Notes: a model not told the origin generated them from the sequence alone. A stretch of DNA of 41,503 bases from a virus (IMGVR_UViG_3300005441_000004:1-41503), one strand, 5' to 3'; positions 5,552-34,979 are shown, numbered from the stretch's first letter. Numbers and translations: made by a program.

Positions 5552-5784
5552 CCTCTCGTGCAGGCCCGGCGGTCGCGCCGGGTGTAGCGAACAGCTTCGG
5601 GGTTCTTCGGTACCGGCACAGCCACACCTGCGCGGCGGTGCGCCCGGCAGAGGCCCTCCCAGGTCATCCCCAGGCGGGCGGCGATGGCCTCGCCGGTCAG
5701 GCCGAACTCCGCCAGCTCGGCGGTGTCGGCGACCACGTCGGCGCGGCGGCGCTTGCGCAGGCGGTTCTCCAGCGTCTGCGTCAC
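5548..5784 (-). CDS. Small helix-turn-helix DNA-binding protein (78 aa)
   Basis: GTG 5784 in a GTGA overlap. TAELAEFGLTGEAIAARLGMTWEGLCRAHRRAG looks like an HTH. Confidence 0.55.
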   Translation of the reverse strand: MTQTLENRLRKRRRADVVADTAELAEFGLTGEAIAARLGMTWEGLCRAHRRAGVAVPVPKNPEAVRYTRRDRRACTRG

Positions 5785-5885
5785 GGTTCGCCACCCCCGC
5801 GGCCGATCGCGCAGGCCATGATCAAGATGATCCCGCAGACGATGATCAGGCCCACCCACCACGGGTAGGGCACGTCGCCGTTCAC
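5781..5885 (-). CDS. 34-aa single-TM peptide
   Basis: GTGA overlaps at both ends. Product is VNGDVPYPWWVGLIIVCGIILIMACAIGRGGGEP. Below the track size cutoff. Confidence 0.45.
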   Translation of the reverse strand: MNGDVPYPWWVGLIIVCGIILIMACAIGRGGGEP

Positions 5886-5983
5886 CGCCGGCCCCCGAAC
5901 CACCGCGCGGCGGCCAGCGTCGCCAGCATGACGAGGACCCCTACGGTTGAGCCGTTGCAGAAACCGATCCAGTAGTCGCTCAC
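5882..5983 (-). CDS. 33-aa single-TM peptide
   Basis: GTGA overlaps at both ends. Product is VSDYWIGFCNGSTVGVLVMLATLAAARWFGGRR. Confidence 0.45.
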   Translation of the reverse strand: MSDYWIGFCNGSTVGVLVMLATLAAARWFGGRR

Positions 5984-6693
5984 TGTGATCCCTTCCGGTA
6001 GAGCTCGGCGTTGCGGCCGGCCAGGTCCCGGGCGGCGCCGTCGTGCCAGAGCTCGCGCAGCACGTACCCGCTCGGGCCCATCGTGCCGCGCAGGCCACGC
6101 GCCAAGGTGTCGAGGAACGCGGTGTCCTCGTAGCCCCAGCCCTCGTAGCGTTCGTCCAGCCCGCCCGCTGCCTCGAACGCCGCACGCCACACCCCCAGCA
6201 CGCCCGGGCAGGGCGCGGGGTGGACGTGCCAGTCCGCGGCCTCCAGCGGCAGCACGGTGCCGTGCAGGATCAACCGGGTGGCCGCCTCGGTGGCGTAGGC
6301 GACGCGGTCGTAGATCCGGGCGAAGGCGTACCCCCGCAACTGGTGCGTGGCCCACTCGATCGCCCGAGCGTCCGGCACGTGGTCGGCGCCGAAGAGCAGG
6401 AAGTGCTCGCCGTGGGCGTGCTTCGCGGCGTCGTTGAGCGCGCGGGCGACCGAGAAGGGGATCAGGTCGTAAAGCGGTGGCGGCCGGAAGTCGCGGTCCA
6501 CCACCGGCTCAATCACACGCTCATACTCGCGCTTGCCGAACAGGGGGTCGTGGCCCACCACGATCTCGTCCACCAGGCCGCGGTTGCGCATGGCGTCCCA
6601 CTGCTTCGAGCACCACCGCCACACCTCGGCGCGATGCTTGCCCGCGGCGTCGAGGGTCGCCCCGAACGGCACGAGCACGCTGATTTTCGTCAC
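5980..6693 (-). CDS. Glycosyltransferase, GT-A fold (237 aa)
   Basis: GTG 6693 after GAAGGTGG. ISVLVPF strand and a GWGYEDTAF motif of the galactosyltransferase-like C-terminal type. Confidence 0.65.
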   Translation of the reverse strand: MTKISVLVPFGATLDAAGKHRAEVWRWCSKQWDAMRNRGLVDEIVVGHDPLFGKREYERVIEPVVDRDFRPPPLYDLIPFSVARALNDAAKHAHGEHFLLFGADHVPDARAIEWATHQLRGYAFARIYDRVAYATEAATRLILHGTVLPLEAADWHVHPAPCPGVLGVWRAAFEAAGGLDERYEGWGYEDTAFLDTLARGLRGTMGPSGYVLRELWHDGAARDLAGRNAELYRKGSQ

Positions 6694-6722
6694 TGGTCTG
6701 TCCACCTTCTGTCCGGGAATTG

Positions 6723-7760
6723 TCAGTCGAGCAGAGCTTTTTCCCACTCGACGGCGTGCGCCTCGAGGGTGTTGGCCTGGGCCCAGGTGAGGGCGAGCGA
6801 AGCCAGTTCCCAGCGCCAGTCCGGCCGCTCGAGGACGTGTTCGAGATCGGCCGCCCACTCGCTGGTGAACTGGATGCCGGGTACGTCAGTGGCCCGGTAC
6901 GGCCCGACGCCGCTGGCGAAGATCGCCATCCCCCGCGCGGCCAGCTCCTTCAGGCGAAGGTCGGACTTCGAGCGGTTGAACAGGTCGTCGGCGAGCGGGG
7001 CGAGCCCGATGTGCCCGGCAAGGGTGGGGATGTAGCGGTCCACGCCCTCGATCCACGGCACCTGCGCGACGCGGGCGTACACCGTGCTCGCCAGCCGCGG
7101 TTCGTCAAGCCGGGCGATCGCCGTGCGCAGCCGGTCCGCGTACGGGGCGCCGACGATCCGGACCTTGAAGTCCGTACGCTCACGCAGCAGCTTCCGCAGC
7201 GGCACGGCCACCTCGTCGAAGTCCCGGCGGTGGGTGTCGCTCCCGGCCCAGGTGATCGTCGGGACCTGCAGCCCCACCAGATCGGGGACCCTGTCCACCA
7301 CGAACCGCTCAGGCACGTAGTTCGGGACCACGCGGACGGTGTCCGGGTCGACGTACTTGCGCAGGGTGCGTACCCGAGTGGCCAGGTGTTCACCGGTGAC
7401 GATGACCCGGTCCGCCTGCCCGATCGTCTCGGTGAGCCGGTACCGCCGCGCGGGGTCGGCCATCATCTCGTGCGCGGGGTTGTGCTCGGGCACGGCGAAC
7501 AGATCGTCGTCGAGTTCCACCACGATCCGCGGCCGCGCGCTCTCCGGCAGCGTCAGCATCTTCTCGATCAGGTGCGTGGTCGTGGACTCGGTCGGGCGCT
7601 GGATGACCACGACGTCGCTCATCGCGGCGGTAGCCAGCCCGACCCGGCGGTCCCACCGCGTCTCGTGGCCGAGGCGCTTGAGCACCCGCGCCGGCTCGGC
7701 GCAGCGGTAGAAGGTGCAGGCCGAGGCGGTGTCCCCGGACCAGAACAGGATGCGGGCCAT
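6723..7760 (-). CDS. Glycosyltransferase, GT-B fold, GT4-like (345 aa)
   Basis: Track ORF. The C-terminal KELAARGMAIFASGVGPY resembles the GT-B nucleotide-sugar binding region. Confidence 0.65.
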   Translation of the reverse strand: MARILFWSGDTASACTFYRCAEPARVLKRLGHETRWDRRVGLATAAMSDVVVIQRPTESTTTHLIEKMLTLPESARPRIVVELDDDLFAVPEHNPAHEMMADPARRYRLTETIGQADRVIVTGEHLATRVRTLRKYVDPDTVRVVPNYVPERFVVDRVPDLVGLQVPTITWAGSDTHRRDFDEVAVPLRKLLRERTDFKVRIVGAPYADRLRTAIARLDEPRLASTVYARVAQVPWIEGVDRYIPTLAGHIGLAPLADDLFNRSKSDLRLKELAARGMAIFASGVGPYRATDVPGIQFTSEWAADLEHVLERPDWRWELASLALTWAQANTLEAHAVEWEKALLD

Positions 7761-10217: not shown

Positions 10218-11963
10218 TCACGTCGCCCCGCCGAGGCAGCGCGCGGCGATCCGCGGGTCCGCCAGCAGCTCGGCGGTGGCGTTCGCCTTCCCGGCCAGTA
10301 CCTCCCGGACGCGGGAGTCCACGGTGTCCTCGGCGACGATGTCGATGATCTCGATCGAGTCGTGAATCTCCGAGCCGATGCGGTGGCACCGGTCCTCGGC
10401 CTGGCTCGCCTCGACGAAGCTCCACGGCCGCTGCAGGAACACGACGGTGTCCGCGGCAGTGAGCGTGATCCCGACCCCGCCGGCGCCGGTGGTAGCGCAA
10501 ATGACATCGGTGTCGTTCGCTTGAAACTGCATGATGGCCGCAGTTCGCTCCCTCATTGACTGGTTGCCAATGACGTACCCGGCGCGGAACCCCTCCCGCT
10601 CCAGCCGCGCGCCGGCCAGCCGGATGAGCTTCGCGCTGGGGGCGAACACCACCGACTGCCGGCCGCGCCGCTCCTCGAGAACCGATACCAGCTCATCGAC
10701 CTTCCAGCTCGGCTCTTTCGGATGCACGTGCACGTGCATCTTCGGTAGGCCGGTGTCCTCGTCGACGTCGGGGCCGTGAGTGATCTCGACGTCGCACGCC
10801 GAGTTGGCCAGGGCGAGCAGGCGCGTGAGCCGGGCAAGCACGTCGAACGCCGGAAGCTGCTGGCCGTCCTCAAGCACGGCGAGCATGTCGCGGTGCATCT
10901 CGTCGTAGGCCCGGCGCGCCGCAGGCGGCAGCGTCACCACCCGCTCGGAGTAGACCTTCGGCGGCAACTCGGGCAGCACATCCTCTTTCGCCAGCCGCCG
11001 GTAATGCCCAGTCAGGCACATCCGGAACTCCGGCTCCCGGTGCCGGTTGAGGCCCAGGACGTCGTCGGAGTAGTCGCCCGCGACGACGTCGAGGTAGCGG
11101 GCGGCGAACCGCTCGGCGCTCGGCCAGCTCACCGGGTCCATCGCCTTGAGCGCCTGATGCAGGTCGCCGGCGTGGTGGGTGATCGGCGTACCGGACAGCG
11201 GCACCACCACCTGCGCCCGGCGGGCCACCTTGAGCGCAGCCTTCGAGCGCGCGGACGTCGCCGACTTGATCAGGTGCGCCTCGTCGATCACGACGGCGGA
11301 GAAACCGGTTACCCGGTGCGCGCGGACCGAGCCGGGTGCGAGGTCGCGGGCCAGCGTCTCGTAGCTGGTCACCAGCAACTCGGGCCGGTCGTCGAGGAAC
11401 CGGCTACGGTGCGGCCCACGGTAGGCGGCCACCCGCCACGGCATCCACCGGGTCGCGTCACGAACCCAGCTGTCCACGACCGAGGCGGGGCAGATCACCA
11501 GCATCGGCGCGGCCAGCGGCAGCACGCCCCGCTCCCGCAGCTCGAGCAGGCCGAGCAGGGTGGTCAGGGTCTTGCCGGTGCCGGGGTCGTCGCAGATCAA
11601 GGCCTGCAGCCCGGCGGCGATGAGCTGCGCCCCGGCCACCTGGTAGCTGCGTGGCTCCGGCGCCCCGGCGTTGACGCGGGCCTTGAACTCCGGCAGTACG
11701 CTCCGGCGTTGCACCTGCTCGTAGATCCAGGCGCGTAGTCGCGGCCCGGGGATCCAGGCCGGCCCCATCTCGCCGGCGATCTGGCACACCACCGGCCACC
11801 GCAGCGGCACCTTCAGCCCGCCGGGCGGGTCGGTCGCGGTGAAGTGCGGCGTCAGCAGGTGCAGACGCCCGACCGCTTCGGCGATGTTGCCGGTGCCGAA
11901 CAGGATGAGGGTCTCGCCGTCGGCGTGGATCTCGCCGTGCACCTGATAGCGGGGCGTGGTCAT
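10218..11963 (-). CDS. SNF2/RAD54-family DNA-dependent ATPase/helicase (581 aa)
   Basis: DDPGTGKT (motif I), VVIDEAHLIK (motif II), TTGAGGVGITLT and QAEDRCHRIGS (motif VI). Confidence 0.85.
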   Translation of the reverse strand: MTTPRYQVHGEIHADGETLILFGTGNIAEAVGRLHLLTPHFTATDPPGGLKVPLRWPVVCQIAGEMGPAWIPGPRLRAWIYEQVQRRSVLPEFKARVNAGAPEPRSYQVAGAQLIAAGLQALICDDPGTGKTLTTLLGLLELRERGVLPLAAPMLVICPASVVDSWVRDATRWMPWRVAAYRGPHRSRFLDDRPELLVTSYETLARDLAPGSVRAHRVTGFSAVVIDEAHLIKSATSARSKAALKVARRAQVVVPLSGTPITHHAGDLHQALKAMDPVSWPSAERFAARYLDVVAGDYSDDVLGLNRHREPEFRMCLTGHYRRLAKEDVLPELPPKVYSERVVTLPPAARRAYDEMHRDMLAVLEDGQQLPAFDVLARLTRLLALANSACDVEITHGPDVDEDTGLPKMHVHVHPKEPSWKVDELVSVLEERRGRQSVVFAPSAKLIRLAGARLEREGFRAGYVIGNQSMRERTAAIMQFQANDTDVICATTGAGGVGITLTAADTVVFLQRPWSFVEASQAEDRCHRIGSEIHDSIEIIDIVAEDTVDSRVREVLAGKANATAELLADPRIAARCLGGAT

Positions 11964-14350: not shown

Positions 14351-14559
14351 CACGTCACCGTCCCCTCCGGAGCGATCGTGGCCAGCATCGCCATCGCCAG
14401 CGCAAGGTTCGACGCGGTCAAGGCCGAGCGGGTGGCATACTCCCCGCTGGCGCTGTGAAAAGTCTCCGGCGAGCCCGTCGGTAGCTGGCCGTTCATGGCC
14501 CGCTCGGCGTGCTGCTCCCAGTACCGGGCAGCCTGGGCGTAGGTGTCGCGGTCCAGCAT
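14350..14559 (-). CDS. Hypothetical protein (69 aa)
   Basis: ATG 14559 in a TAATG overlap with the Cas4-like stop. The gene is flanked by a 14-nt direct repeat. Confidence 0.5.
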   Translation of the reverse strand: MLDRDTYAQAARYWEQHAERAMNGQLPTGSPETFHSASGEYATRSALTASNLALAMAMLATIAPEGTVT

Positions 14560-15407
14560 TACGTCACCGTCCCCGGGCAGCCCACGCCGTCGTCCGGACC
14601 GTCCTGGTTCGGCCGGTAAAACTGGCAAAAGTAGCACTCGTGGTGATCCGGACTGCGCTCCACCTGCGCCCACATCGCACCCTGCGCGTAGACCGGGGCG
14701 GCCGCGATCGCCGCGGCGAGGCGCTTGCGGCGCACGGTGTCGTCGGCGATCTCGTGCAGAAGCTGCGCCATCTGGGCGTCCATCGCATGCTCCCAGACGT
14801 AGAGCCCGGCGAGGCTGGAGCCGGTGCGCGGCCAGGCCAGCAGCGCAATCCGCCGCACCGGCAAGCCCTCTTGCATGTAGCCCAGGCCGTAGAGCCCGAG
14901 CTGGCCGACGTACTTGCGCGGCGGCCCGCCGGGGCTCTTGACGATGTCCATCGACGTCGCGCCGAGCAGCTTGTGGTCGAGCATGCACGCCTCCCACGCG
15001 TCGTAGAGATCGCCGGTGCCGGGGTGCTCGGCGAAGACGCCGCCGGGGTTGACGCGCCGCTCGGGCAGGTAGCGCACCGCGCCGAGCTGAGTGTTCTCCC
15101 AGCGGAACATCGCATCCAGCTCGGCGTGCCCGGCCGTGCCCATGAAGCTGGGCCAGGGGTCGACGACGTGGTTGGTGGCCTCGATGCCGAGCAGCTTGCC
15201 CACCACCTGCCGGTCGCACTCCACCCCCAGCTCGCTGGGCCCGAGGTGCCGCTGCAGCGAGCGCGGCCGGCGCGCGGAGTAGCGGCGCAGGATGTCCGCC
15301 ATCCGCACCGCGGTGGCCGCCGCCCATTCGGTATTGCCCTGGGTGGCGGCCGGGCGCGGACCGGGCTGGGCGAGGTAGGCGTCCAGCGTGGCCGGGGGCG
15401 CGGTCAC
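14559..15407 (-). CDS. Cas4/RecB-family PD-(D/E)XK exonuclease with a 4-Cys cluster (282 aa)
   Basis: N-terminal Cys (GVECDRQ). GDLYD...MLDHK nuclease motifs. C-terminal CYFCQF...GC. GTG 15407 in a GTGA overlap, with an alternative GTG at 15419. Confidence 0.75.
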   Translation of the reverse strand: MTAPPATLDAYLAQPGPRPAATQGNTEWAAATAVRMADILRRYSARRPRSLQRHLGPSELGVECDRQVVGKLLGIEATNHVVDPWPSFMGTAGHAELDAMFRWENTQLGAVRYLPERRVNPGGVFAEHPGTGDLYDAWEACMLDHKLLGATSMDIVKSPGGPPRKYVGQLGLYGLGYMQEGLPVRRIALLAWPRTGSSLAGLYVWEHAMDAQMAQLLHEIADDTVRRKRLAAAIAAAPVYAQGAMWAQVERSPDHHECYFCQFYRPNQDGPDDGVGCPGTVT

Positions 15408-16462
15408 CCTTCCCGCCACTGCGCCGCGCCGCCGCGCGGACGGTCCTCGGGTGCGGTGTACGCGCGCCGGATCCGCTCCCGTTTCACGGTCTGATACATC
15501 TCTTCCACTGCGTCATCGCTGAACGCCGCGACGGTGGCGTCGAACCGGATCGGGCCCTCCGCGTCGACGGCCAGGATGCCGTGCGCGGTGTTGCTCGCCC
15601 CGCACCGCGCACACGTCGCGCCGGGTGTGGTGGTCAGGGTTCCCGGCGTGTCGACGAAGTCATGGCACGCGTGTTCCGGCGGCGTCGGGGCTGGGTCCGG
15701 GCAGTCGCACATGCCGCGGTGCCCGCACTCTTTCGTCAGCGGGATCGTCGTGGTTCGCTCGTGCGTCTCTTCGATCGCCGGCTGGGGGTCCGGCTCGGGC
15801 CCGTAGAACGCCGCGCGCTCCTCAGCGGTGGGGCGGCGCAGCGGCATGTCGTCCGCCCACCCGATCTTGCCGTCCAGCCCTTCCCAGGTGGCCGGCGTCG
15901 GGTGGCGCACGTTACCGCTCTGCCAGCGCAGTACCTCGGCGTAGCTCTTCACGATGAGCCAGCGGAACGGGTGGTAGACGTCGCTGTCCTCGGCGCCCAG
16001 CGGGAACACCGCGTACGCGAATCGTCTCCCGTCATCCGTCCAGAGCGCGCCCTCTTCCGGCGGCTCGGGGTCGACGCCCGGGAGCAGCGTGGCCGCCTGA
16101 TGCGCAGCCTCGTCGGCCTTGACTTGCTCGCGGATCTTCGCCGCCACCTCGTCGGGGCTGGGCTCAGCCTTGACCTCACGTTCGACGTTTTCGCCGAGGT
16201 CGTTGAGCTTGCGCAGCAGCGTTAACGCATCGAAGTTACCCGACGCGGTGGCCATGCCCATGTTCAGCTCGGCGAGCCGAGCCGCGGTGTAGAGCATCTC
16301 GCGCAGGTGGTCGTGCTCAGCCACCTTGTCCGAGGCGGGCCAGCCGCTGTTGTGGTGAAGGTCCACCAGCTCGGACCGGTTGCCTTCAGCGAGCTCGAGC
16401 CAGTGCTGGGCCTGCCTGAGGTAGATCAACTGGCTGTTGAGGTCCTCACCAGGTTCGCTCAC
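15404..16462 (-). CDS. Hypothetical protein (352 aa) with a Cys/His-rich segment
   Basis: Track ORF. CGHRGMCDCPDP...HACHDF...CARCG suggests metal binding. Confidence 0.6.
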   Translation of the reverse strand: MSEPGEDLNSQLIYLRQAQHWLELAEGNRSELVDLHHNSGWPASDKVAEHDHLREMLYTAARLAELNMGMATASGNFDALTLLRKLNDLGENVEREVKAEPSPDEVAAKIREQVKADEAAHQAATLLPGVDPEPPEEGALWTDDGRRFAYAVFPLGAEDSDVYHPFRWLIVKSYAEVLRWQSGNVRHPTPATWEGLDGKIGWADDMPLRRPTAEERAAFYGPEPDPQPAIEETHERTTTIPLTKECGHRGMCDCPDPAPTPPEHACHDFVDTPGTLTTTPGATCARCGASNTAHGILAVDAEGPIRFDATVAAFSDDAVEEMYQTVKRERIRRAYTAPEDRPRGGAAQWREG

Positions 16463-16839
16463 TTCTCACGCTCCAACTTCCACGTGCCGCCCTCTTTGAC
16501 GTAGGCGGCGTAGATCTCGGGGTGGTCGGCCTTGAACGCCGGGGTGTTGAGCCGCCGCGACGTCGCCCACTTCAGCGACCGCGCGACCTGGCCGGGCACC
16601 GAGATCCGGTAGGCGGGGTAGGGCTGGTTCGTGAGCGCGCCGGTCGCCGGGTCCCGGACCGGCCGCGTCACCGCGGTCAGCGCGGCCTTGATCCGGGCCT
16701 GCACCTCGTTCAGCTGGTCCTCGATCGCCTTTTTCTTCGTGTACAGGTCCTCTTCGATCGACAGCAGCTGGTCGATCTCCGCGGCGCCGCCGACGTAGTC
16801 GTAGGTCTCCGGCGCCGCGGGGGGTGCGGGTGTCGTCAT
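16459..16839 (-). CDS. Hypothetical coiled-coil protein (126 aa), first gene of the leftward arm
   Basis: ATG 16839 lies 5 nt after AAAGGA (complement of 16845-16850). ATGA-type overlap downstream. Confidence 0.6.
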   Translation of the reverse strand: MTTPAPPAAPETYDYVGGAAEIDQLLSIEEDLYTKKKAIEDQLNEVQARIKAALTAVTRPVRDPATGALTNQPYPAYRISVPGQVARSLKWATSRRLNTPAFKADHPEIYAAYVKEGGTWKLEREK

Positions 16840-16861
16840 GGCCGTCCTTTCGTCGGGGCCC

Positions 16862-16891
16862 AGCTTGGCATGACTTGTGCCAGATGTGCAA
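16862..16891 (-). promoter_or_regulatory. Promoter P5' (leftward): TTGCAC-N18-CAAGCT
   Basis: The minus strand reads TTGCACatctggcacaagtcatgcCAAGCT. Its -35 region overlaps that of P5. Confidence 0.5.
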
Positions 16892-16904
16892 CCCGTGCGA
16901 TCCT
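16875..16904 (+). promoter_or_regulatory. Promoter P5 (rightward): TTGTGC-N18-GATCCT
   Basis: TTGTGCcagatgtgcaacccgtgcGATCCT. ATG 16911 follows 6 nt later, so the mRNA would be leaderless. Confidence 0.6.
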
Positions 16905-16910
16905 GGCAGC

Positions 16911-17246
16911 ATGACGACCCCCGAAGAGCGGATCTACGCCGCCACCCACGGCGAGCCCGTCGGCGGGCCGCGCGTGCCCCCGCTGGACCCGCCCGAGCAC
17001 GAATTCGTGACGATCAAGGAAGCCCAGCTGCTCACCGGCGCGGCGCGCCGCACCATCATGGGCTGGCTCGACCGCGGCGAGATCCACCGATTCAAGGCCG
17101 AGAACGGGTACAACACCCTGATCAACAAGGCGGAGCTGCTCAGCTTCGACGCCGCCCGCCGCACCACCCGCAGCGGGCGTGCTCCCGTTGTGATCGACGG
17201 GAAGCCCGTCGCGGACTACGCTCGGGAACCTTCGCCCGACCAGTGA
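16911..17246 (+). CDS. Excisionase/MerR-type HTH DNA-binding protein (111 aa)
   Basis: FVTIKEAQLLTGAARRTIMGWLDRGEIHRF. The track ORF is trimmed to ATG 16911. Confidence 0.7.
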   Translation: MTTPEERIYAATHGEPVGGPRVPPLDPPEHEFVTIKEAQLLTGAARRTIMGWLDRGEIHRFKAENGYNTLINKAELLSFDAARRTTRSGRAPVVIDGKPVADYAREPSPDQ

Positions 17247-17294: not shown

Positions 17295-17633
17295 ATGTCA
17301 CGGCCAAGCGACATCCACTACATGAACGAAAGGGCATCTTACGTGAACGACCCCAACACCGTCCAGCGGGACGGCGACGCAACCCTAGATGATGTAGTCG
17401 CGTGGCTGGAGTTCGAAGGCATCGACTGCCTTACCCACGCCTACGTGACCAGCCCCACCGCCTACGCGATTAAGCACACAGCGGAGCGCGCGCTCGGACT
17501 CTACGTTTCCGAGCGCCTCATGATCGACGCGGCGAAGCGCTACGGCTATCCGACGATCACCAGTGACGCAGGCACGCACGTCGGCATGGACAACGACGGC
17601 TACGCCGACACGCACAAGCGAGCCTGTCGGTGA
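17295..17633 (+). CDS. Hypothetical protein (112 aa), start uncertain
   Basis: Track ORF. Alternative starts are ATG 17322 and GTG 17343 (after GAAAGGG). GTGA overlap with the replicase start. Confidence 0.5.
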   Translation: MSRPSDIHYMNERASYVNDPNTVQRDGDATLDDVVAWLEFEGIDCLTHAYVTSPTAYAIKHTAERALGLYVSERLMIDAAKRYGYPTITSDAGTHVGMDNDGYADTHKRACR

Positions 17634-20600
17634 CCGCCCCGCAGCGCCCGGAGGCGGCGCTCTTCGAGGGCGCCATGGCCACGATCGCCGCCGGCTACCT
17701 GGTCCGGATGGTCGAGATCGGCTGGGACTCCGCCAAGGGCAAGAAGAAACTGGTCCGCAACCCCGGCGAGAACTGGCAGGCCGGCCCCCAGCTGAGCCAG
17801 GCGCAGGTCATGGAAGCCATCCGCGCCGGCTGCAACGCCTACCTCTACCGACTCCCGGACGGCGTCTGGGTGGTCGACGTCGATGCCCACGAGATGATGC
17901 TGACGATCGGCGAACGGCTCGGCGCCCCGGATGTCGTCACCCCGCGCGGCGGCGCCCACTGGCTGGTCGACGCCCAGCTGGACCCCGTCGCCGGAATCGA
18001 CACCGAACCGCGCCAGCTCTACGGGCCCGGCTCGTTCTACGAGATCCCCGGCCGCGGCATGGTCGCCTACACCGGCACCGTCCCGGCCGGCCCGCGTCAC
18101 CTGCCGGACAACCTGCCGCGCAAAACAGCGAAGCCTGCCCAGCCCGCCGCGCCGGGCGAAACCGGCGCGTTGGCGGACTACCTGGCCCGGCGGGACCTGC
18201 GGGCCATGCCCCGGGGGCGGGCGAACCAGCGCGCCGCCGAGCTACTGGCCGCGATCGCCAACGGCCCGGAGACCGGCGCGGCCGCGCGGCTGGGGATCAA
18301 CAACGCCGCGGCGTTCCTCGGCGGCCTGCTGCACACCGGCCTGCTCGAGCACGGCGCCGCGGTGGACGCCCTGGAGTCGGCGTGCGAGCTGCGCTGGGGC
18401 ACCTGCTCCGAAGCCGATCGCCAGTGGATCCAGGAAGGCCTGTCCTTCGGGGTGGCCAACCCGGTCGAGATCTACGAGCCGGAGGAACGCGCCGCCGAGC
18501 AAGCCGCCGCGGTGATGCACGCCCCTTTCGACCCCGCGAGCCCTTTCGGTTCTGAGCCCTTCACCTGGGCCGGAGCCACCGCACTGGACATGGCCGACGC
18601 GCTGCTGGTCCGCGTCGCCCCGGCGCTGCGGGTGATGTGGTCGGACGTCACCACCGGCAAACCGGCCTGCCTCACCCGCTCCACCCGCGGCCACTGGTCC
18701 TACGTCGCCGACGGGTTCAAGTGGGCCGCGCTGCGCCTGCTCGACACCATGCCCCGCGGCGTCCGCCCGGAAACCAAAGAGCGCTCCGAGTGGACAGAGG
18801 AGAACTGGGCTCACCACCGCCGGGACCGCTTCACCCGCGAACTCACTGAGGTCGTCGGCCTGGCCGAAGCTCGCGTCCGCCACCCCGATCACGGGCTGGT
18901 CGTCACTCCCGCCCAAGTCGAGGGCCCGCGCGAAGTCGTGTGGTGCGCCGGCACGCCATGGCGCCTCGGCTCGGTCATCGACGTCGCTCCGATGCCGGCC
19001 GGCACCCCGCACATGCACTCCATCCCCTTCGCCCCCGCCGACGTCCCCACCCCCGCGTGGAACCGGTTCGTCAAGGCGATGTGGCCCGAGGAAGACGTGG
19101 CCGAGTGGGCGCTGCGCGTGCTCGCCGTCGGGTTCACCGGCGATTCGGACGCCGTCATGCCCGTACTGCACGGGCCGACCGGGCGCGGCAAGTCGAAGTT
19201 CATGGGGCGCGTGCTCGCCCTGCTCGGCGGCTACGGCACCGCCGCCAGCAAGGCCTTGATCGTGCCCACCGCCGGCAATGTGGACGTCGCGAAGGCCCAC
19301 CTACAGGGCGTCCGGCTCGCGTGGCTGGATGAGGCACCTGGCACCGGCAAAGCCTCGGTGGAGGCGCTCAAGGACATCACCGGCGGCGGGGATGTTTACG
19401 CCGCGGCGAAGTACCGGGCGCCGATCGTCTTCAAGAGCACCCACACCCTCGTGCTCACCATGAACGACGCGCCCGAGATCCACGACGAAGCCGTCGCCCG
19501 TCGCGTCCGACTCATCCCGTGCTTCGGCGACCCGGAGGAGCTGGGCCACGCGTTCGACGAACTCGCCCCCGCCTGGGATCGGGAGGCGCCCGGCGTCCTG
19601 GCCGCCATGCTCCAGCGCGCCGCAGCCTACCTCGTCGACTGGCGCACCATCGGAGAGGACCACGCACCCGCTACTGTCCGTGAGATCACGGCCCGGATCA
19701 TCGGCGAGCAGGACGTCATCGGGATGTGGCTGGCGCAGTGCACGCGGCCCAGCGAAGAGGGGATGCGCAGCGGCGATCTCTACGCCAACTTCCGCGACTT
19801 CGCCCGGCAGTTCTCGGAGTGGGAAAAGCGGGTGCCGGCGTCCAACGTGTGGTCCGCGCGGGTGGACCGAGCGGGTTACCCGGTCTTCAAGCGCCCGAAG
19901 AACATTCCGTACCGCGCGCTGGCTCTGGCCAACGGAGGGGACGTTTCGTGGGCCGTCGCACCCTCCCCGGTTACGGGGGTGAGGGGGGTTGGTGATGGGG
20001 TGAAGCCCGACCCGTCACCCGCCGAGACCAGCGGCAACGCGCCAAATGTTACTAGTGTTATGACCTCTCAATATACTATTACGGGAGGAGTAGTAGAAAG
20101 TAGGGGGGAGGGAGACAATGGAAAAACCGAGTTAACCACCCCTCCCTCATCACCCGCTCCCGCGCTCCTCAGCTCGGCTCTCGCGGACCAGCCGGACCCC
20201 GGCTCAGTGATCAACTGCGCGTGGTGCGCAGGGCCTGCGGAGCTCACGAAGTCGATCAAGTTCAAGGTCCACAAGACCCCCGCCGGCGACCGGTGCGACG
20301 GCTCCCAGCAGACACCCCCGGGGGTGCTTACGCTCCGTGAGCGGAAGGCGAAGGAACGCGACGCGATCAAGCTCGGCAAGATCACCGCCGCGGCCGGGCC
20401 GACGCTGACCCTGCCCGCCGCCATGCGCCGCGGCGAAGAACCCCGCCAAGTCACCGCCGCCGAAGCGCTGGCCATCGGGCGTGCCGCCATCGCCCGCAAC
20501 GGCGGCCGGATCGCCGTGGACTGCGAGACCAACGCCCGGCCGCTCTGGCACCCCGAGTACGCCACCCAGACCATCCAGCTTGGCGACTGGGCCGAAGCGA

Positions 20601-22246
20601 TCGACCTCGACGCGTCCGACCCCGAGCACCGCGCCGTCGCGGCCACCCTTATCGCCGAGGCGGCCGAGCTCGAGGCCTTCAGCTACACCGCGGACCTGGT
20701 GCCGCTGGCACGCCTCGGCATCGCCGAGTACGACGCGATGTTGGCCAAGTGCGTCGATGTCGCCACGATCGTTAAGCTCACCGATCCGGCCCTGACCGCC
20801 AACGGCGACGGCCTCAAAGAGACCTCGGCCGCCGTGCTCGGCGACGCCGCGCTGTCCCCGGCCGCCGAAGACGCCCGCAAGGCACTCGGCGACGCAGCCG
20901 GCTGGATCTGGAAGCTCGAGCACGACACCCCCGATGAACGCAACGGGTGGCTCCAGGTGGACCGCCGGTGCGCCACCATGGCCCGCTACGCCATGGCCGA
21001 CGTCCTGGACTGCTCGGCCCTGCGCCTCAAGCTGCCCCAGCCAGACCCGGCCGTCATGGCCCGCGAGATCGTCGCTGAGCGCGTCGTAGCCAAGCTTCCC
21101 TACCTCGGGCTCGCCATCGACGGCCCGGCCGTCAGGGCGCAACTGAGCGACCGGGAACCCCGCGCCGCGGCCAAGCTCACCCGGATCCGCGAGCTCGGGG
21201 TGGGGAACCCGGACTCCCCGAAGCAGGTCACCGAGCGCCTGCGCGCCCTCGGCGCGATCCTCCCGCAGACCAAGGGCGGCAACGACTCCGGCGCGAAAGA
21301 CGTGCTCGAGAAGCTGCAGCACGCTCCGGGCGAACTCGGCGAGCTGGCTAAAACGATCATGGGCTGGCGCGACGACGCCACCGTGCTCAAGAACATGATC
21401 CGCCCCTGGGCCCGCTCCACCGAGCACGGCGACTGCCGCACCTACCCGACGATCTACACCCTCGGCGCCGACACCGGCCGCATGAGCTGCGTCCGCCCGA
21501 ACCTGCAGCAAGTGGCCCGCGAGGGAGGCCTGCGCGAGTGCATCGCCGCCGACCCCGGCATGCTCTTCATCGCCGCGGACTTCTCCTCGGTGGAGGTTCG
21601 CGTCGCCGCCTACGTCTCCGGCGACCGCAACCTCATCGCGATGATCAACGGGGCCATCACGTGCCCGACATGCCAGGCCGGCACGACCTGCGTGCACCAC
21701 GACCTGCACGCTATGATCGCCAACCAGGCGTACGGGCCGGGGTTCACGAAGGCGAACCGCTACAACGTCAAGCGCGTCGTCTTCGGCCGGCTCTACGGCG
21801 GCAGCGCGCCGACACTGGCCGCCCAGACGGGCCTCGACATCCCGATGGTGGACCGGCTCGTGGCCATCCTCGACGCCCTCGCCCCCCAGCTGGCCGCGTG
21901 GTCCGCGCAGGTCCGCCAGGCTGTCAAGAACGGGCTGCGCGAGTACCGGACGTACTCCGGACGGGTGATTCACCTCGACCCCCGCTTGCCGCACAAGGCC
22001 CCGAACTACATCATTCAGGGCACCGCCCGCGAGCTGCTTGTGGACGCGCTCATCCACTGGGAGCAAGGCCCGTACGCCAGGGGTGTCGTGCTCCCTGTGC
22101 ACGACGAGATCGTGGCCATGGTCCCCACCGAGCAGGCCCCCGCGGCAACCCGGTTCCTGGTGCAGTGCATGACCACCCAGCTCGGCCCGGTGCCGATCAC
22201 GGTGGAGGCCGACGAACCGGCCGAGGTCTGGCAGAGTGCCGCGTGA
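17630..22246 (+). CDS. Fused replicase (1538 aa): AEP PrimPol domain, D5/P4-type SF3 helicase, 3'-5' exonuclease and family-A DNA polymerase
   Basis: PrimPol: VVDVDAHE and TPRGGAHW. Helicase: HGPTGRGKSKF (Walker A) and WLDEAPG (Walker B). Exonuclease: IAVDCETN. PolA: DFSSVEVRVAAY (motif A), KRVVFGRLYGGS (motif B), PVHDEIV (motif C). Single uninterrupted track ORF. Confidence 0.85.
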   Translation: MTAPQRPEAALFEGAMATIAAGYLVRMVEIGWDSAKGKKKLVRNPGENWQAGPQLSQAQVMEAIRAGCNAYLYRLPDGVWVVDVDAHEMMLTIGERLGAPDVVTPRGGAHWLVDAQLDPVAGIDTEPRQLYGPGSFYEIPGRGMVAYTGTVPAGPRHLPDNLPRKTAKPAQPAAPGETGALADYLARRDLRAMPRGRANQRAAELLAAIANGPETGAAARLGINNAAAFLGGLLHTGLLEHGAAVDALESACELRWGTCSEADRQWIQEGLSFGVANPVEIYEPEERAAEQAAAVMHAPFDPASPFGSEPFTWAGATALDMADALLVRVAPALRVMWSDVTTGKPACLTRSTRGHWSYVADGFKWAALRLLDTMPRGVRPETKERSEWTEENWAHHRRDRFTRELTEVVGLAEARVRHPDHGLVVTPAQVEGPREVVWCAGTPWRLGSVIDVAPMPAGTPHMHSIPFAPADVPTPAWNRFVKAMWPEEDVAEWALRVLAVGFTGDSDAVMPVLHGPTGRGKSKFMGRVLALLGGYGTAASKALIVPTAGNVDVAKAHLQGVRLAWLDEAPGTGKASVEALKDITGGGDVYAAAKYRAPIVFKSTHTLVLTMNDAPEIHDEAVARRVRLIPCFGDPEELGHAFDELAPAWDREAPGVLAAMLQRAAAYLVDWRTIGEDHAPATVREITARIIGEQDVIGMWLAQCTRPSEEGMRSGDLYANFRDFARQFSEWEKRVPASNVWSARVDRAGYPVFKRPKNIPYRALALANGGDVSWAVAPSPVTGVRGVGDGVKPDPSPAETSGNAPNVTSVMTSQYTITGGVVESRGEGDNGKTELTTPPSSPAPALLSSALADQPDPGSVINCAWCAGPAELTKSIKFKVHKTPAGDRCDGSQQTPPGVLTLRERKAKERDAIKLGKITAAAGPTLTLPAAMRRGEEPRQVTAAEALAIGRAAIARNGGRIAVDCETNARPLWHPEYATQTIQLGDWAEAIDLDASDPEHRAVAATLIAEAAELEAFSYTADLVPLARLGIAEYDAMLAKCVDVATIVKLTDPALTANGDGLKETSAAVLGDAALSPAAEDARKALGDAAGWIWKLEHDTPDERNGWLQVDRRCATMARYAMADVLDCSALRLKLPQPDPAVMAREIVAERVVAKLPYLGLAIDGPAVRAQLSDREPRAAAKLTRIRELGVGNPDSPKQVTERLRALGAILPQTKGGNDSGAKDVLEKLQHAPGELGELAKTIMGWRDDATVLKNMIRPWARSTEHGDCRTYPTIYTLGADTGRMSCVRPNLQQVAREGGLRECIAADPGMLFIAADFSSVEVRVAAYVSGDRNLIAMINGAITCPTCQAGTTCVHHDLHAMIANQAYGPGFTKANRYNVKRVVFGRLYGGSAPTLAAQTGLDIPMVDRLVAILDALAPQLAAWSAQVRQAVKNGLREYRTYSGRVIHLDPRLPHKAPNYIIQGTARELLVDALIHWEQGPYARGVVLPVHDEIVAMVPTEQAPAATRFLVQCMTTQLGPVPITVEADEPAEVWQSAA

Positions 22247-22319
22247 CCAGCGGACTTGCGGGCGTATGGCACACTGCGCACATGAGGCTGGGTGCACAAG
22301 ACGTAGGGCGTACGACATC

Positions 22320-22895
22320 GTGACAGCCCGTGGCGGGACCCCGAAGGCGAACCCCGCCGAGCGCATCGACCGCGCTCGGCGGGCCTTCGAGCTGAGCCTG
22401 AGCGGCCGTAGCTACCGCGACGTCGCTGAGTTGATGAAGGGCGAAGGCTACGGCCGGATCTCGAAGGACACCGTCGGCAAGCTGCTACGCGAGTACGCCA
22501 ACGCCTACGTGCTACCGCTGGCCAAGGAACACGTCACCCGCGAGTTCGAACGGTTGCTCGAGCAGCGCACCCGGCTGGAGAAGGGCCTCGCCGCGGCATG
22601 GGCGATCCACGACCGCCGGCACGTCGCCTACTCGGCCAGCGGCGGCATCGTCCGCGACAACGGCCGGACGATCCGCGACGACGGGCCGAGCGTCCAGGCG
22701 CTGGCCCAGGTGCGCGGGTTCGAGGACCTGATGCTCAAGAACGCCGAGGCCATGGCCAAGCTCTTCGGCTACAACGCGACCGTCCGCACCGAGGTCACCG
22801 TGGTCACCGAGACCGACCGCGCGATCGCCGACCTGGTCGGTGAGCTCGACGCGCGGGACGCCCGCGACACCGCCCCGGTGGGTGTGGAAAACTAA
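22320..22895 (+). CDS. Putative terminase small subunit / HTH DNA-binding protein (191 aa)
   Basis: HTH GRSYRDVAELMKGEGYGRISKDTVGKLL followed by a coiled coil. Lies upstream of the packaging genes. The start is uncertain (GTG 22320, with in-frame alternatives from 22236). Confidence 0.5.
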   Translation: MTARGGTPKANPAERIDRARRAFELSLSGRSYRDVAELMKGEGYGRISKDTVGKLLREYANAYVLPLAKEHVTREFERLLEQRTRLEKGLAAAWAIHDRRHVAYSASGGIVRDNGRTIRDDGPSVQALAQVRGFEDLMLKNAEAMAKLFGYNATVRTEVTVVTETDRAIADLVGELDARDARDTAPVGVEN

Positions 22896-34599: not shown

Positions 34600-34979
34600 G
34601 GGGCCCCTACACGATGAAGGCGAGGGTGCTGGCGTGGATCTCCGGGAACTGGGAGGACATCGCGAGCGATCTCGCCGTGTTCCACCGGGTCGACGACCCC
34701 GACACGCTGAGCATCCCCGTCTTCCTGTCGAAAGTGGTCCGGCTCAGCGCATACGGCGGAGCACTGGCCACGCGCTTCGCCGCCACCCAGACCGCGGGGA
34801 CGGCCTCCCCCGCGAACGTCCCCGCCGCCGGGAACGCCCCCCGCGCCGGCGGCGGGGACACCCCGCCCGAGGTCATCGCCGCGATCAAGCGGCAGCAGTT
34901 CGCGGCGCGGTACAAGACAGACCCCAGCGCGATCAGGTGGGATAACGACGAGGTGTACAGGGAGCTGGTGAATCTATGA
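34174..34979 (+). CDS. Tail assembly chaperone GT-like product made by a -1 frameshift near the G6 run at 34565-34570
   Basis: The downstream ORF (track 34614..34979) is in the -1 frame, is open back through 34545, and ends in an ATGA overlap with the tape measure start. Confidence 0.45.

Follow-up and report, generated by a model that had tools for sequence, protein, structure and literature searches.

Single polypeptides that combine primase, helicase and family A DNA polymerase (PolA) modules are rare, but examples have already been published, so the kind of protein analyzed here is not new. ORF36 of TOSV OS3173 (3173 Pol), from the "Pyrovirus" hot-spring phages, is a 1,606-aa helicase-exonuclease-PolA polyprotein (PMC7689252; also PMC10201439). 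Pas55 of the Actinoplanes phage phiAsp2, with 1415 aa, has been cited as a helicase-primase-PolA fusion with a DnaG-type primase, and in gp55 of Lactococcus phage 1706 and its Rhodococcus phage relatives a single chain unites an AEP primase and an SF3 helicase with a replicative polymerase (PMC4889955). The apicoplast PREX protein is processed by proteolysis, which releases its polymerase (PMC10201439, PMC7689252). A first-pass annotation of the locus studied here named PREX as its closest parallel; that choice does not hold, since the TOSV polyprotein, Pas55 and gp55 are closer.

Origins located beside or within the gene of an initiator protein have also been described. In the SaPIs, iterons of opposite orientation lie on both sides of an AT-rich centre, immediately 3' of rep, and hexameric 3'->5' translocation has been shown for Rep (PMC9371898). 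For pRN1, 166 bp located downstream of orf904 are required (PMC4234260). The lambda origin, made up of iterons and an AT-rich tract, is situated within the middle part of gene O and is translated, and extra iterons add residues to the O protein (PMC7466680).

A conserved gene for a fused replicase

The window, that is, the whole stretch of 41,503 nucleotides of viral DNA that we analyzed, amounts to a complete genome of 41.4 kb whose ends overlap by 120 nt. According to the ORF listing and the translation, the fused replicase occupies positions 17630..22246 of the plus strand, starts with GTG and has 1538 codons plus the stop. Its start overlaps by 4 nt (GTGA) the stop of an upstream ORF of 112 codons (17295..17633, +), and this overlap recurs in homologous loci. 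The genome is 70% GC and long chance ORFs occur in it, such as an antisense ORF of 720 aa at 20204..22366; the replicase frame has a coding signature, with GC1/2/3 values of 0.71/0.52/0.90. The rightward operon opens with an HTH_17 gene (excisionase/MerR-like; 16824..17246, +) whose synteny is conserved in relatives, as is that of the replicase locus. The genome also carries genes for an SNF2-type helicase (10218-11963) and for an exonuclease separate from the replicase (14559-15419), and its annotated genes showed no further polymerase or primase. The modules on either side of the replicase linker are mosaic between relatives.

The order of the modules in the protein is Prim-Pol candidate, helical domain, D5_N-like domain, SF3 helicase, a linker of ~100 residues, Cys/His knuckle, DEDDy exonuclease and family A polymerase. 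The first-pass annotation had described a primase-polymerase, a helicase, an exonuclease and a PolA in one uninterrupted frame of 1538 codons, and this description stands: the translation of 17630-22246 has no internal stop, and it contains all the motifs listed, which are VVDVDAHE (aa 81-88), TPRGGAHW (aa 104-111), GPTGRGKS (aa 515-522) and WLDEAPG (aa 565-571), followed in the C-terminal half by VDCETN (aa 963-968), DFSSVEVR (aa 1317-1324), KRVVFGRLYGG (aa 1381-1391) and VHDEIV (aa 1490-1495). The four module assignments are upheld with differing strength, PolA by PF00476, the helicase by PF19263 and TIGR01613, the exonuclease through its relatives and an AF2 model, and the Prim-Pol by sub-threshold matches. 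Two features described below, the origin-like DNA of the linker and a Cys-Cys-His-Cys motif, are additions to that annotation.

An identical 1538-aa protein has been called on a public contig of 41,524 nt, and 12 more proteins of 1520-1568 aa, with 74-40% identity, align with the replicase from end to end. In this set of 13 close homologues, all modules have catalytic residues that show no variation; 11 members of the set correspond to separate contigs, 10-42 kb long. A survey of relatives for split and fused versions, as had been proposed, found both: helicase and PolA share one chain in 64 of 150 distant cluster representatives (clustered at 50% identity), and the fused state is kept in lineages down to about 35% identity. 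Single ORFs of ~1550-1690 aa are present in cultured Nocardioides, Labedaea and Haloactinopolyspora genomes, and ~30 IMG/VR contigs also carry single-ORF replicases. Sequence comparison demonstrates homology for the helicase, exonuclease and polymerase modules and conservation for their catalytic residues. The ORF is a genuine, conserved gene, and we consider it probable that its product works as a single-chain phage replicase, unprocessed; this judgment is a joint one for the whole explanation, including the coupled hexamer and the use of the linker DNA as an origin that are discussed below.

The predicted primase-helicase half

The N-terminal alpha/beta domain (aa 1-165; 17630..18124, +) is a divergent candidate of the Prim-Pol (AEP) family, proposed from its motifs, its AF2 model and Foldseek matches. 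Motif I is D83-x-D85 (17876-17884), motif II is GG-x-H110 (17957-17959) and motif III is D124 (17999-18001), all on the plus strand; D83, D85 and D124 are invariant across relatives, and H110 is nearly so. In the AF2 model, with pLDDT above 90 for aa 10-160, D83 and D85 are placed at the end of a strand (80-84) and H110 within another (109-113). Foldseek searches against the viral predicted structures of BFVD gave 18 matches with E<=1e-3 (best 5.6e-8), the named ones being mostly Prim_Pol or primase, while the search of the PDB returned nothing below E = 1. Neither the sequence-based PDB profile search nor PHROGs gave a match for this domain, and PF09250 did not match the full protein or aa 1-460; with a 177-aa N-terminal fragment, the same family was reached below threshold (E 0.0086, 17 bits against a cut-off of 22.8). 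Seven of eight distant fused relatives have a bona fide PF09250 domain at this position, and hhalign against nine bona fide Prim-Pol N-termini of fused relatives gave an E of 4e-4 and a probability of 34%, with the DxD strand aligned. The Prim-Pol assignment is therefore supported by sub-threshold sequence signals and by predicted-fold matches to viral Prim-Pol proteins, and the domain is best described as a candidate primase, with a putative priming activity.

After a disordered segment (aa 170-190), the AF2 model shows an all-helical domain at aa 191-296 (18200..18517, +). This domain is common to both N-terminal variants of the family (hhalign probability 99.6%), and the BFVD matches cover Prim_Pol plus the next domain; on the basis of its position and these fold matches, we suggest that it is a PriCT-like accessory domain of the primase. 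The following "Mid" domain (aa 300-465; 18527..19024, +) resembles the D5_N domain that precedes helicases of this type. It has no Pfam match in the studied replicase, although in one relative (P0045) the equivalent segment matches PF08706 (D5_N) exactly at the gathering score, and in split relatives it always accompanies the helicase module.

The P4/D5-type SF3 helicase covers aa 466-760 (19025..19909, +), and its assignment is firm at the level of sequence, as is that of PolA. PF19263 matches above its cut-off (E 9e-9, 36.4 bits against 27.6) and phrog_1156 matches with E 1e-39, while TIGR01613 aligns aa 471-727 with positions 37-293 of its 304 (E 8.9e-25), at 87 bits, below its cut-off of 108.7. 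The Pfam matches of this region are DUF5906 and VapE-like, without DUF927. Walker A (GPTGRGKS, 19172-19195), Walker B (WLDEAPG, 19322-19342), motif C (THTLVLTMN, 19439-19465, all +) with its asparagine, and an arginine finger are all present, and G515, G520, K521, D567, E568, T606, N612, R625 and R627 are invariant in the 13 homologues, with S522 nearly so. The profiles reach aa 727-756. By analogy with P4 alpha and SaPI Rep, the C-terminal region of the helicase (about aa 690-765) is presumably a winged-helix domain for origin binding; a PDB sequence search with aa 636-771 gave no match.

The exonuclease-polymerase half

This half begins with a Cys-x2-Cys...His...Cys motif (C863, C866, H881 and C889; 20216..20296, +), a putative zinc knuckle. 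It is invariant in the 13 close homologues, is present in 17 of the 55 family members examined, and is modelled as two beta-hairpins with a pLDDT of about 97; it may bind zinc. A long basic helix with a conserved AGPxLxLPAAMRRG motif (20411-20434) then leads into the exonuclease (20306..20464, +).

The predicted DEDDy 3'-5' exonuclease (aa 946-1140; 20465..21049, +) has ExoI D964/E966, ExoII D1022 and ExoIII Y1120/D1124, residues that are invariant in the 13 homologues and in 30 aligned sequences. The segment has no Pfam match in the studied replicase, and PF01612 is matched by 12 of the 30 aligned relatives (best E 7e-9). The AF2 model has a pLDDT of 95.4, and its top Foldseek matches in the PDB are DnaQ-fold exonucleases and the exonuclease domains of PolA proteins, with a probability of ~1 and E values of only 3e-3 to 1e-1. 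Taken together, the relatives and the high-confidence model support the assignment.

The family A DNA polymerase (aa 1141-1538; 21050..22243, +) is matched by PF00476 over aa 1184-1528 (E 1.1e-40, 140 bits against a cut-off of 34.3), by phrog_17 (E 5e-71), by NF011539 (E 1e-35) and by PolA chains of the PDB (6e-20 to 2e-11). The residues of motif A (D1317/E1322), motif B (R1377/K1381/F1385) and motif C (H1491/D1492/E1493), all on the plus strand, are invariant in the 13 homologues. Between motifs A and B there is an insertion, ITCPTCQAGTTCVHH (aa 1343-1357; 21656..21700, +), with a second Cys/His cluster; only four of the 13 close homologues have it, and the sequences that lack it show a gap of 14 columns.

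Origin-like DNA within the linker

The two halves of the protein are joined by a low-complexity linker rich in G, S, P, A, V and T (aa 761-860; 19910..20209, +), which is unconserved as protein. Its DNA (about 19960-20165) is an AT-rich, repeat-bearing island. The AT-rich core of this island includes the 120-nt window at 20036-20155, which has the lowest GC of the 41.5 kb (0.47 against 0.70 for the genome, z = -4.6), and GC3, which is 0.85-0.98 along the replicase ORF, falls to 0.40 at codons 796-840. The origin-like element (19966..20161, no strand assigned) begins ~60 nt past the end of helicase homology at aa 760, inside the same ORF. The genome has only two TTACGGG boxes, at 19971 and 20079, and both are in this element, which has three TTAC[GT][GA]G boxes, all forward. 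There are also four GGGTGA/TCACCC boxes, at 19977, 19998, 20020 and 20155, two on each strand, and an imperfect inverted repeat flanks the AT-rich core with arms within 19975-20000 and 20141-20161. The repeats of the studied linker are few and degenerate: their exact k-mer density ranks only 90th of 1649 windows, and to the right of the core the TTACGGG box has no perfect reverse copy.

In the homologous loci, the main GC3 dip is in the linker in 13 of 13 cases, and the locus-wide GC minimum lies within it in 10 of 13. As a control across the family, the linker was also the 400-nt window richest in 7-mers repeated in both orientations in 10 of the 13 loci. The repeated 7-mers are specific to each lineage, and almost all of their copies fall within 260 nt of the core, as in L004 (8/8), L005 (7/7), L007 (10/10) and L003 (9/10); in several loci the forward copies are mostly upstream and the reverse copies mostly downstream of the AT-rich core. 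Because an AT-rich core with repeats in both orientations resembles the SaPI and lambda origins, and here directly follows the helicase region, the balance tips slightly towards the linker DNA being a translated replication origin, a reading drawn from analogy and from sequence patterns.

A proposed one-gene replicon and its alternatives

SF3 helicases are hexamers that translocate 3'->5'. Since they act in this way, the replicase would assemble as a ring bearing tethered primase and polymerase domains; this hexameric coupling is a proposal. The ring would unwind along the leading-strand template, with PolA copying the leading strand directly behind the helicase and the Prim-Pol priming the displaced strand. 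The linker-coding DNA would provide the origin, with an AT-rich unwinding core and short flanking repeats that the C-terminal domain of the helicase itself may bind. In the strongest form of this proposal, one ORF would provide origin recognition, melting, unwinding, priming, elongation and proofreading and would contain its translated origin as a tether; we put this forward tentatively, at somewhat less than an even chance. If it is true, the protein would load onto the DNA stretch that encodes its own linker, and the fusion would be maintained because the origin also encodes the segment that keeps the polymerase attached to the helicase ring.

In principle, a spurious indel in the metagenomic contig could have merged two neighbouring genes: the sequence comes from a metagenome-type assembly, and a single indel would fuse the two genes of the nearest cultured phages, which overlap by 4-7 nt. 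We reject this artefact, whose probability is negligible, because 13 homologues align end to end with invariant catalytic residues; numerous independent assemblies, as well as genomes of cultured bacteria, contain this uninterrupted frame, and the fused family has an additional linker that is absent from the split pair examined. A genuine gene could still yield two products, through cleavage in the linker, as in PREX, or through an internal start for the exonuclease-polymerase half, in which case primase-helicase and PolA would work as separate enzymes, as they do in split relatives. The length, low complexity and lack of conservation of the linker are compatible with this, as are the existence of separate primase-helicase and exonuclease-PolA relatives with boundaries in or near the linker (others break after the exonuclease), a single in-frame GTG (aa 791) behind a strong Shine-Dalgarno-like sequence, and the name of polyprotein given to the published parallels (PMC7689252). 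This internal start is, however, unconserved, with none in the linkers of L003 and L004 and some at non-homologous positions in L005; no sigma-70-like promoter was found in 19700-20500, and no dedicated protease or cleavage motif is known. Moreover, the fusion persists across lineages, although one frameshift would be enough to split the replicase, which argues that the covalent link is selected. We regard separate products as unlikely.

The linker may also be only a flexible protein tether, whose AT-richness and repeats come from a relaxation of selection, from V-T-G and similar peptide repeats, and from recombination between modules, or it may hold another cis-element, such as a regulatory or partition site. 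Some direct repeats of L003 are indeed in-frame 12-nt tandems that encode VTG repeats, the mosaic pattern of the flanking modules means that the linker could be a recombination joint, and the studied genome has weak linker repeats and other low-GC islands, for example in the long ORF 34976-38254. In addition, third codon positions of the linker are no more conserved than expected between the studied locus and its two closest relatives, with no excess at synonymous sites. Peptide repeats nevertheless leave the reverse-complement copies unexplained, and relaxed selection explains neither why nearly all copies of the lineage-specific 7-mers in 8-15 kb fall within 260 nt of the core nor why the GC minimum is there in 10 of 13 loci and in the studied genome. 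The layout of several loci, with forward copies mostly upstream and reverse copies mostly downstream of an AT-rich centre directly after an initiator-type helicase, is that of SaPI origins (PMC9371898). A mere tether or another cis-element appears rather unlikely to us, and we retain the translated origin as the working interpretation of the linker DNA.

Comparison with known systems

Like the TOSV polyprotein, the replicase is a chain of ~1,600 aa that combines an N-terminal P-loop region of primase/helicase type with a 3'-5' exonuclease and PolA. Both are encoded in phage genomes in the 37-42 kb range, together with a nearby separate SF2-type helicase and nuclease gene, represented here by the SNF2-type helicase and the exonuclease genes. 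Fused and unfused versions exist among the relatives of the TOSV polyprotein (PMC7689252), as they do for the replicase. They differ in host and habitat, thermophilic Aquificae there and high-GC Actinomycetota here, and, comparing by description only, in the helicase region, published as DUF927/COG5519 for TOSV and of the DUF5906/TIGR01613 P4 type in our case. Pas55 (gene at L006:43304-47551) is also a single polypeptide of a cultured actinophage, but it is similar only in the PolA part (26% identity over 330 aa, E 3e-21); its N-terminal part matches Pfam DUF3854, and Prim-Pol was not found in it. This limited similarity and the DnaG-type/DUF3854 primase part mark it as an independent, analogous fusion. 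The gp55 of phage 1706, again compared by description, has a family B polymerase instead of family A.

PREX likewise has primase, helicase, exonuclease and PolA on one translated chain, and its PolA is similar (E 4e-16), although no closer to the studied PolA than Taq Pol I. It is a eukaryotic organellar protein with a TOPRIM primase and another helicase module, and no TOPRIM-type or DnaB-type family was among the profile matches of the replicase, which, judged by these matches, resembles PREX in concept and is not a member of its type. The first-pass annotation had also stated that these activities are on separate genes in actinophages, which is right for the nearest cultured ones. Among 50,697 deposited phage records, no single chain with AEP, SF3 and PolA was found, and the best matches are adjacent primase/helicase and PolI genes of Microbacterium phages (Dismasvirus, Armstrongvirus) in the same order. 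Their helicase, exonuclease and PolA modules are homologous to those of the replicase, with 25-28% identity, but they are divided between two overlapping genes of 824 and 624 codons, and in the two split relatives examined the junction lacks the ~100-aa linker, the AT-rich island and the Cys/His knuckle.

Regarding initiators, pRN1 ORF904, P4 gp-alpha and SaPI PriRep/Rep combine a primase at the N-terminus with an SF3 helicase and, at the C-terminus, a DNA-binding region for recognition of an origin beside their own gene, and the TIGR01613 match of the replicase points to homology with the P4 family. A processive polymerase and an exonuclease are missing from all of these initiators, and in none of them is the origin translated as a linker joined to an enzyme downstream. 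The lambda O protein, unrelated in sequence, is only an origin-binding protein that recruits the helicase, primase and polymerase of the host. An origin-like linker is not described for the TOSV polyprotein, and what is new in the locus studied here is the origin-like DNA inside the linker of a fused replicase.

An uninterrupted replicase frame in a complete phage genome

The replicase ORF occupies positions 17630..22246 of the + strand, starts with GTG and, according to the ORF listing, comprises 1538 codons, with no internal stop in its translation. The single uninterrupted frame described in the first-pass annotation is thus borne out, and every motif quoted there was found at its expected place in the translated protein. 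The 70% GC DNA of the window also contains long ORFs that occur by chance, such as a 720-codon antisense ORF at 20204..22366; the replicase frame carries a coding signature, with GC1/GC2/GC3 values of 0.71/0.52/0.90.

The two ends of the window share an exact 120-nt direct repeat (1-120 is identical to 41384-41503), which fits either a circularly closed assembly or terminal redundancy, and we therefore consider the window to be a complete phage genome of ~41.4 kb. Its products include a large terminase, a portal, an endolysin, a tail component, a methyltransferase and glycosyltransferases, and the replication-related neighbours of the replicase are an SNF2-type helicase gene (10218-11963) and an exonuclease gene (14559-15419), both on the - strand. 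No second polymerase or primase is present among the annotated genes of the window. Two glycosyltransferase genes and a methyltransferase-domain gene are clustered at 3972-7760 on the - strand, possibly forming a DNA-, virion- or cell-wall-modification module; the Actinoplanes phage phiAsp2 likewise has glycosyl- and methyltransferases.

Enzymatic modules of the fused protein

The module searches support the domain interpretation of the first-pass annotation, the Prim-Pol being the weakest of the calls. By homology, the C-terminal domain is unambiguously a PolA polymerase: it matches PF00476 (E 1e-40), phrog_17 (E 5e-71) and NF011539, “bifunctional 3'-5' exonuclease/DNA polymerase” (E 1e-35), as well as the PDB chains 8jrb (6e-20), Taq (3.5e-16), PREX apPOL (4e-16) and Klenow (2e-11), and its motifs A, B and C are invariant in the alignment of close homologues. 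Between motifs A and B lies the insertion ITCPTCQAGTTCVHH (CxxC...C.H; 21656-21700, aa 1343-1357), present in only 4 of the 13 close homologues, which could be a second putative metal-binding cluster.

The helicase is, from its profile matches and motifs, of the P4/D5-type SF3 class. PF19263 is matched above the cut-off, TIGR01613 (“phage/plasmid primase, P4 family”) is covered over nearly the whole profile with an E of 9e-25, a score below the NCBI trusted one, and the Walker A, Walker B, motif C and arginine residues are conserved. In split relatives, the preceding “mid” domain (aa 300-465) always stays with the helicase, and in the homologous protein P0045 it matches D5_N exactly at the gathering score. 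Sequence searches of the PDB with the helicase region gave only a weak match to the ASFV C962R primase (E 0.1) and those with the post-helicase region (aa 636-771) gave none; no hit backs the assignment of the winged-helix domain predicted after the helicase.

The exonuclease segment of the window protein has no Pfam match, and PF01612 is recognized in 12 of 30 aligned relatives (best E 7e-9). The DEDDy residues D964, E966, D1022, Y1120 and D1124 are invariant. The AlphaFold model of aa 848-1143 (pLDDT 95.4, pTM 0.87) has as its best Foldseek matches in the PDB exclusively DnaQ-fold exonucleases or PolA exo domains (NrnC, diDNase, ExnV1, Nibbler, Rrp6, T7 gp5, DpoZ and apPOL), with probabilities near 1 and modest E values of 3e-3 to 1e-1. 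The start of the exonuclease-polymerase half is marked by C863-x2-C866...H881...C889, which is invariant among close homologues, limited to the closer clade, in 17 of the 55 sequences, and modelled with a pLDDT of ~97; an AGPxLxLPAxxxRG motif before the exonuclease is common to all family members.

The N-terminal domain is predicted, with moderate confidence, to be a divergent AEP Prim-Pol. Pfam searches with the full protein and with aa 1-460 returned no Prim-Pol match, PDB profile searches with both N-terminal variants and a PHROGs search with 13 N-terminal sequences gave nothing meaningful, and Foldseek against the PDB found nothing below E = 1 for the N-terminal model. The prediction draws on other evidence. 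The model has a pLDDT of 86 overall and above 90 for aa 10-160, and a comparison of it with predicted viral structures returned 18 matches at E<=1e-3 (best 5.6e-8), those with names being mostly Prim_Pol, primase-polymerase or primase-helicase proteins. When the 177-aa N-terminal fragment is searched in isolation, its top match is PF09250, below threshold (E 0.0086), and bona fide PF09250 domains (E 1e-15 to 1e-22) occupy the same position in 7 of the 8 distant fused relatives whose N-termini were not recognized by our HMM. A profile-profile comparison of the window-type domain with these N-termini aligns the DxD strand (E 4e-4, with a probability of only 34%); D83, D85 and D124 are invariant and H110 is nearly so. 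Furthermore, the N-domain and the helical domain alone form stand-alone proteins of 336 aa (locus L001:280-1290) and 347 aa (L002:922-1965), in both cases with a separate AAA_25 (RepA/DnaB-like) gene immediately downstream. Such a neighbour is the usual company of a primase, and the putative primase module of the window is here combined with a helicase of another class.

Distribution and mosaicism of the family

The search of 5.8 billion proteins recovered an identical 1538-aa protein on a 41,524-nt contig and twelve other proteins of 1520-1568 aa, with identities from 74% down to 40%, which align with the window protein end to end and all carry the helicase and PolA Pfam domains. Residues 460-1538 were then compared by an exhaustive HMMER search with 1.84 billion cluster representatives, of which 263 matched at E<=1e-30; the best 150 of them were scored with module-specific HMMs. 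SF3 helicase and PolA occur in one chain of 1,078-2,154 aa in 64 of these 150 representatives, while 46 have exonuclease and PolA only, 17 the D5_N-like domain and helicase only, and 6 a chain ending after the exonuclease. Fused and split versions, of which the earlier annotation proposed a survey, thus both occur among the relatives. All ten fused representatives that were looked up are metagenomic sequences, and around 30 of the best 80 IMG/VR contigs carry the fused version. In the prokaryote scan, with one genome per species, relatives were found in Nocardioides sp. Root190, N. marinquilinus, Labedaea rhizosphaerae, Haloactinopolyspora alba, Actinophytocola and several Actinomycetota MAGs; ORF calling in these genomes gave single ORFs of 1547-1691 codons, and a version split into 1209 and 489 codons in Actinophytocola. 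The end-to-end homologues, the fused representatives and the single ORFs in bacterial genomes rule out false joining or an assembly artefact as the source of the long frame.

The gene order is also kept: an HTH_17 gene comes first, followed by a small ORF with a stop that shares 4 nt with the start of the replicase, then by the replicase itself and a gene of ~190 aa. From the relatives in Actinomycetota genomes and the synteny, we conclude that the hosts are high-GC Actinomycetota and that many members of the family are prophages. No near-identical phage DNA came up in a megablast search of 50,697 phage records, and none of these deposited records contains a match of comparable coverage to the window protein. 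The family is sizeable and seen only in metagenomes and prophages. It is common both among uncultured actinophages and among the prophages of Nocardioides, Labedaea and related genera; having no cultured-phage representative among the records searched, it constitutes an unstudied but common solution.

The fused proteins are otherwise collinear but mosaic: their N-terminal catalytic domain is one of two that look unrelated, and the mid region likewise comes in two versions. The alternative N-terminal domain distinguishes P0002, P0003 and P0011 from the other ten homologues (alignment columns 1-300), and the alternative mid region is found in P0004-P0007 (columns 400-600). We dropped the treatment of the two N-terminal variants as one family, since hhalign aligned only the helical domain of the window-type and P0002-type N-termini and detected no profile similarity between the catalytic domains; they are therefore treated as alternative Prim-Pol modules. 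Long variants of about 1750-2150 aa (proteins P0034, P0040, P0045, P0056, P0088 and P0089; loci L036 and L041) carry an insertion of ~390-480 aa that separates the exonuclease from the C-terminal part of PolA. Pfam showed no intein or other domain in the insertions of the two variants tested, which are 1.9-2.2 kaa long and have ~470 extra residues in PolA. In P0107, P0110, P0113, P0116 and the Actinophytocola sp. locus L015 (1384-6472), the chain ends after the exonuclease at ~1210-1260 aa, and in L015 it is followed by the overlapping 489-codon ORF. This split point differs from the helicase/exonuclease junction of the Microbacterium phages.

An AT-rich, repeat-bearing island in the linker

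In the replicase frame, GC3 lies between 0.85 and 0.98 except at codons 781-840, where it falls to 0.52 (0.40 at codons 796-840). The 120 nt at 20036-20155 have a GC content of 47% compared with 70% for the genome, the lowest value of the 41.5 kb (z = -4.6). Several of the next-lowest windows (0.49-0.57) cluster at 36718-37589, inside a 1092-codon ORF (34976-38254) of the structural-gene region that is without a PHROG match. Among 13 homologous loci with 36-74% protein identity, including prophages in cultured bacteria, the main GC3 dip is located in the linker in all 13 and the locus-wide GC minimum in 10.

In the linkers of the relatives, the AT-rich core is surrounded by short repeats of either orientation, with a motif that differs by lineage: GGTTACGGG forward and CCCGTAAC reverse in L003, GTGACGG and CCGTCAC in L004 and L024, CGGTTCCACC and GGTGGAACCG in L005, GGTGAGG and CCTCACC in L019, and TAGTGACGCATT and AATGCGTCACTA in L043 and L048. 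As a control, every 400-nt window of each locus was scored for its most repeated 7-mer present on both strands; the linker was the top-scoring window of the whole 8-15 kb locus in 10 of 13 cases. The copies of the lineage 7-mer within 260 nt of the core amount to 8/8, 7/7, 10/10 and 9/10, and in several loci the forward copies are mostly upstream of the core and the reverse copies mostly downstream.

The repeats in the linker of the window are more degenerate than those of its relatives. The only two TTACGGG heptamers of the genome are at 19971 and 20079, four GGGTGA/TCACCC boxes are observed against 0.26 expected, and an imperfect inverted repeat surrounds the core, with arms within 19975-20000 and 20141-20161. 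The exact k-mer repeat density ranks 90 of 1649 windows, which is not exceptional, and therefore the argument for an origin rests mainly on the GC minimum and on the relatives. The nucleotide sequence of the core can be aligned with that of the two closest relatives, in which GTTAC boxes stand to its left and GTAAC boxes to its right. In the same comparison, third-position conservation in the linker showed no excess over expectation, a test with little power, since GC3 is almost saturated elsewhere.

The region 19700-20500 contains no match to a sigma-70-like promoter or a terminator consensus, and a scan of four loci for Shine-Dalgarno sequences with in-frame starts revealed no conserved internal start: the window has one, at aa 791, and L003 and L004 have none in the linker. 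GC skew was discarded as an origin indicator, since it follows the direction of transcription and is uninformative. At 20100-20135, inside the AT-rich core, an out-of-frame ATG (20118) after GGGAGGGAG opens a 5-codon mini-ORF (MEKPS*), probably a chance feature.

A candidate origin and a model of replication

In SaPI, 6-12 iterons with an AT-rich centre and oppositely oriented flanks lie immediately downstream of the rep ORF, and the Rep helicase recognizes them through its C-terminal winged-helix domain (PMC9371898). In lambda, iterons and an AT-rich tract form an origin that is translated as part of gene O, in whose middle it lies (PMC7466680), and replication of pRN1 depends on the 166 bp that directly follow orf904, its Prim-Pol/SF3 gene (PMC4234260). 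The linker element resembles these origins in its anatomy, most clearly in the relatives, and also in its position, directly after the P4-family primase-helicase homology. On these grounds we infer, by analogy, that it probably serves as a replication origin and would be bound by the protein's own post-helicase domain; its repeats would differ between lineages because the motif would co-evolve with that domain.

One could imagine that the fusion arose by read-through of an intergenic spacer that already carried the origin. The nearest cultured phages, the Microbacterium phages SanaSana and Skylord, have separate genes of 824 and 624 codons that overlap by 4-7 nt, and, unlike in the window, their junction has neither a linker nor an AT-rich island. 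This absence from the split cultured relatives examined argues that the fusion is not a simple read-through of an intergenic origin. That split relatives exist at all shows that the covalent link is not obligatory. The fusion persists across very divergent lineages even though one frameshift would split it, from which we argue that the link is under selection.

In the model that we propose, translation of the replicase would be coupled to the small upstream ORF with which it overlaps by 4 nt. SF3 helicases are known to oligomerize and to translocate 3'->5', and the SF3 module would do the same, presumably as a hexamer. The post-helicase region would recognize the repeats and the ring would melt the AT-rich core. 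Primers would be made by the Prim-Pol, as its conserved catalytic residues suggest, and extended and proofread by the exonuclease-PolA half, tethered by ~100 predicted disordered residues, an activity consistent with its homology and its intact catalytic residues.

If the chain works intact, it would be among the most complete single-polypeptide replisomes known, with helicase and polymerase coupled by a covalent tether; T7 couples them by protein-protein contacts. If the protein is merely processed, it would be an ordinary gene fusion of a known kind. The conserved island leads to a specific prediction that is easy to test, namely that gene and origin coincide. Should the origin indeed be the linker DNA, the two would make up a very compact and self-contained unit of replication, which would be attractive for minimal replicons, for actinobacterial vectors and for DNA replication in vitro or in synthetic cells. 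It would also provide a clean system for studying initiator specificity and iteron co-evolution, because the repeat motif varies by lineage while the architecture stays fixed.

Comparison with published fusions

In the papers that we read on the published fusions, we found no mention of a translated linker with origin-like features. Kazlauskas et al. (2016) name just two three-way helicase-primase-polymerase fusions: gp55 of Lactococcus phage 1706, with SF3, AEP and PolB, and Pas55 of Actinoplanes phage phiAsp2, with SF3, a DnaG-type primase and PolA (PMC4889955). Pas55 has the PolA domain alone in common with the window protein, at 26% identity, and differs in its N-terminal domain, which is DUF3854. 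In the “Pyrovirus” hot-spring phages, with genomes of 37-42 kb, a polyprotein of 1,606 aa unites a primase/helicase-like DUF927 region with an exonuclease and PolA, and both fused and unfused versions occur (PMC7689252). Czernecki et al. (2023) reported AEP-PolA fusions in ~7% of the bacterial “Hot Spring 1” PolAs and listed no partners for the actinophage D29-like PolAs (PMC10201439). PREX is a eukaryotic analogue whose modules are TOPRIM-type. Multi-enzyme fusion as such is therefore already known, but the published cases differ in their modules, and thus the combination of Prim-Pol, P4-type SF3 helicase and PolA in the window protein is new.
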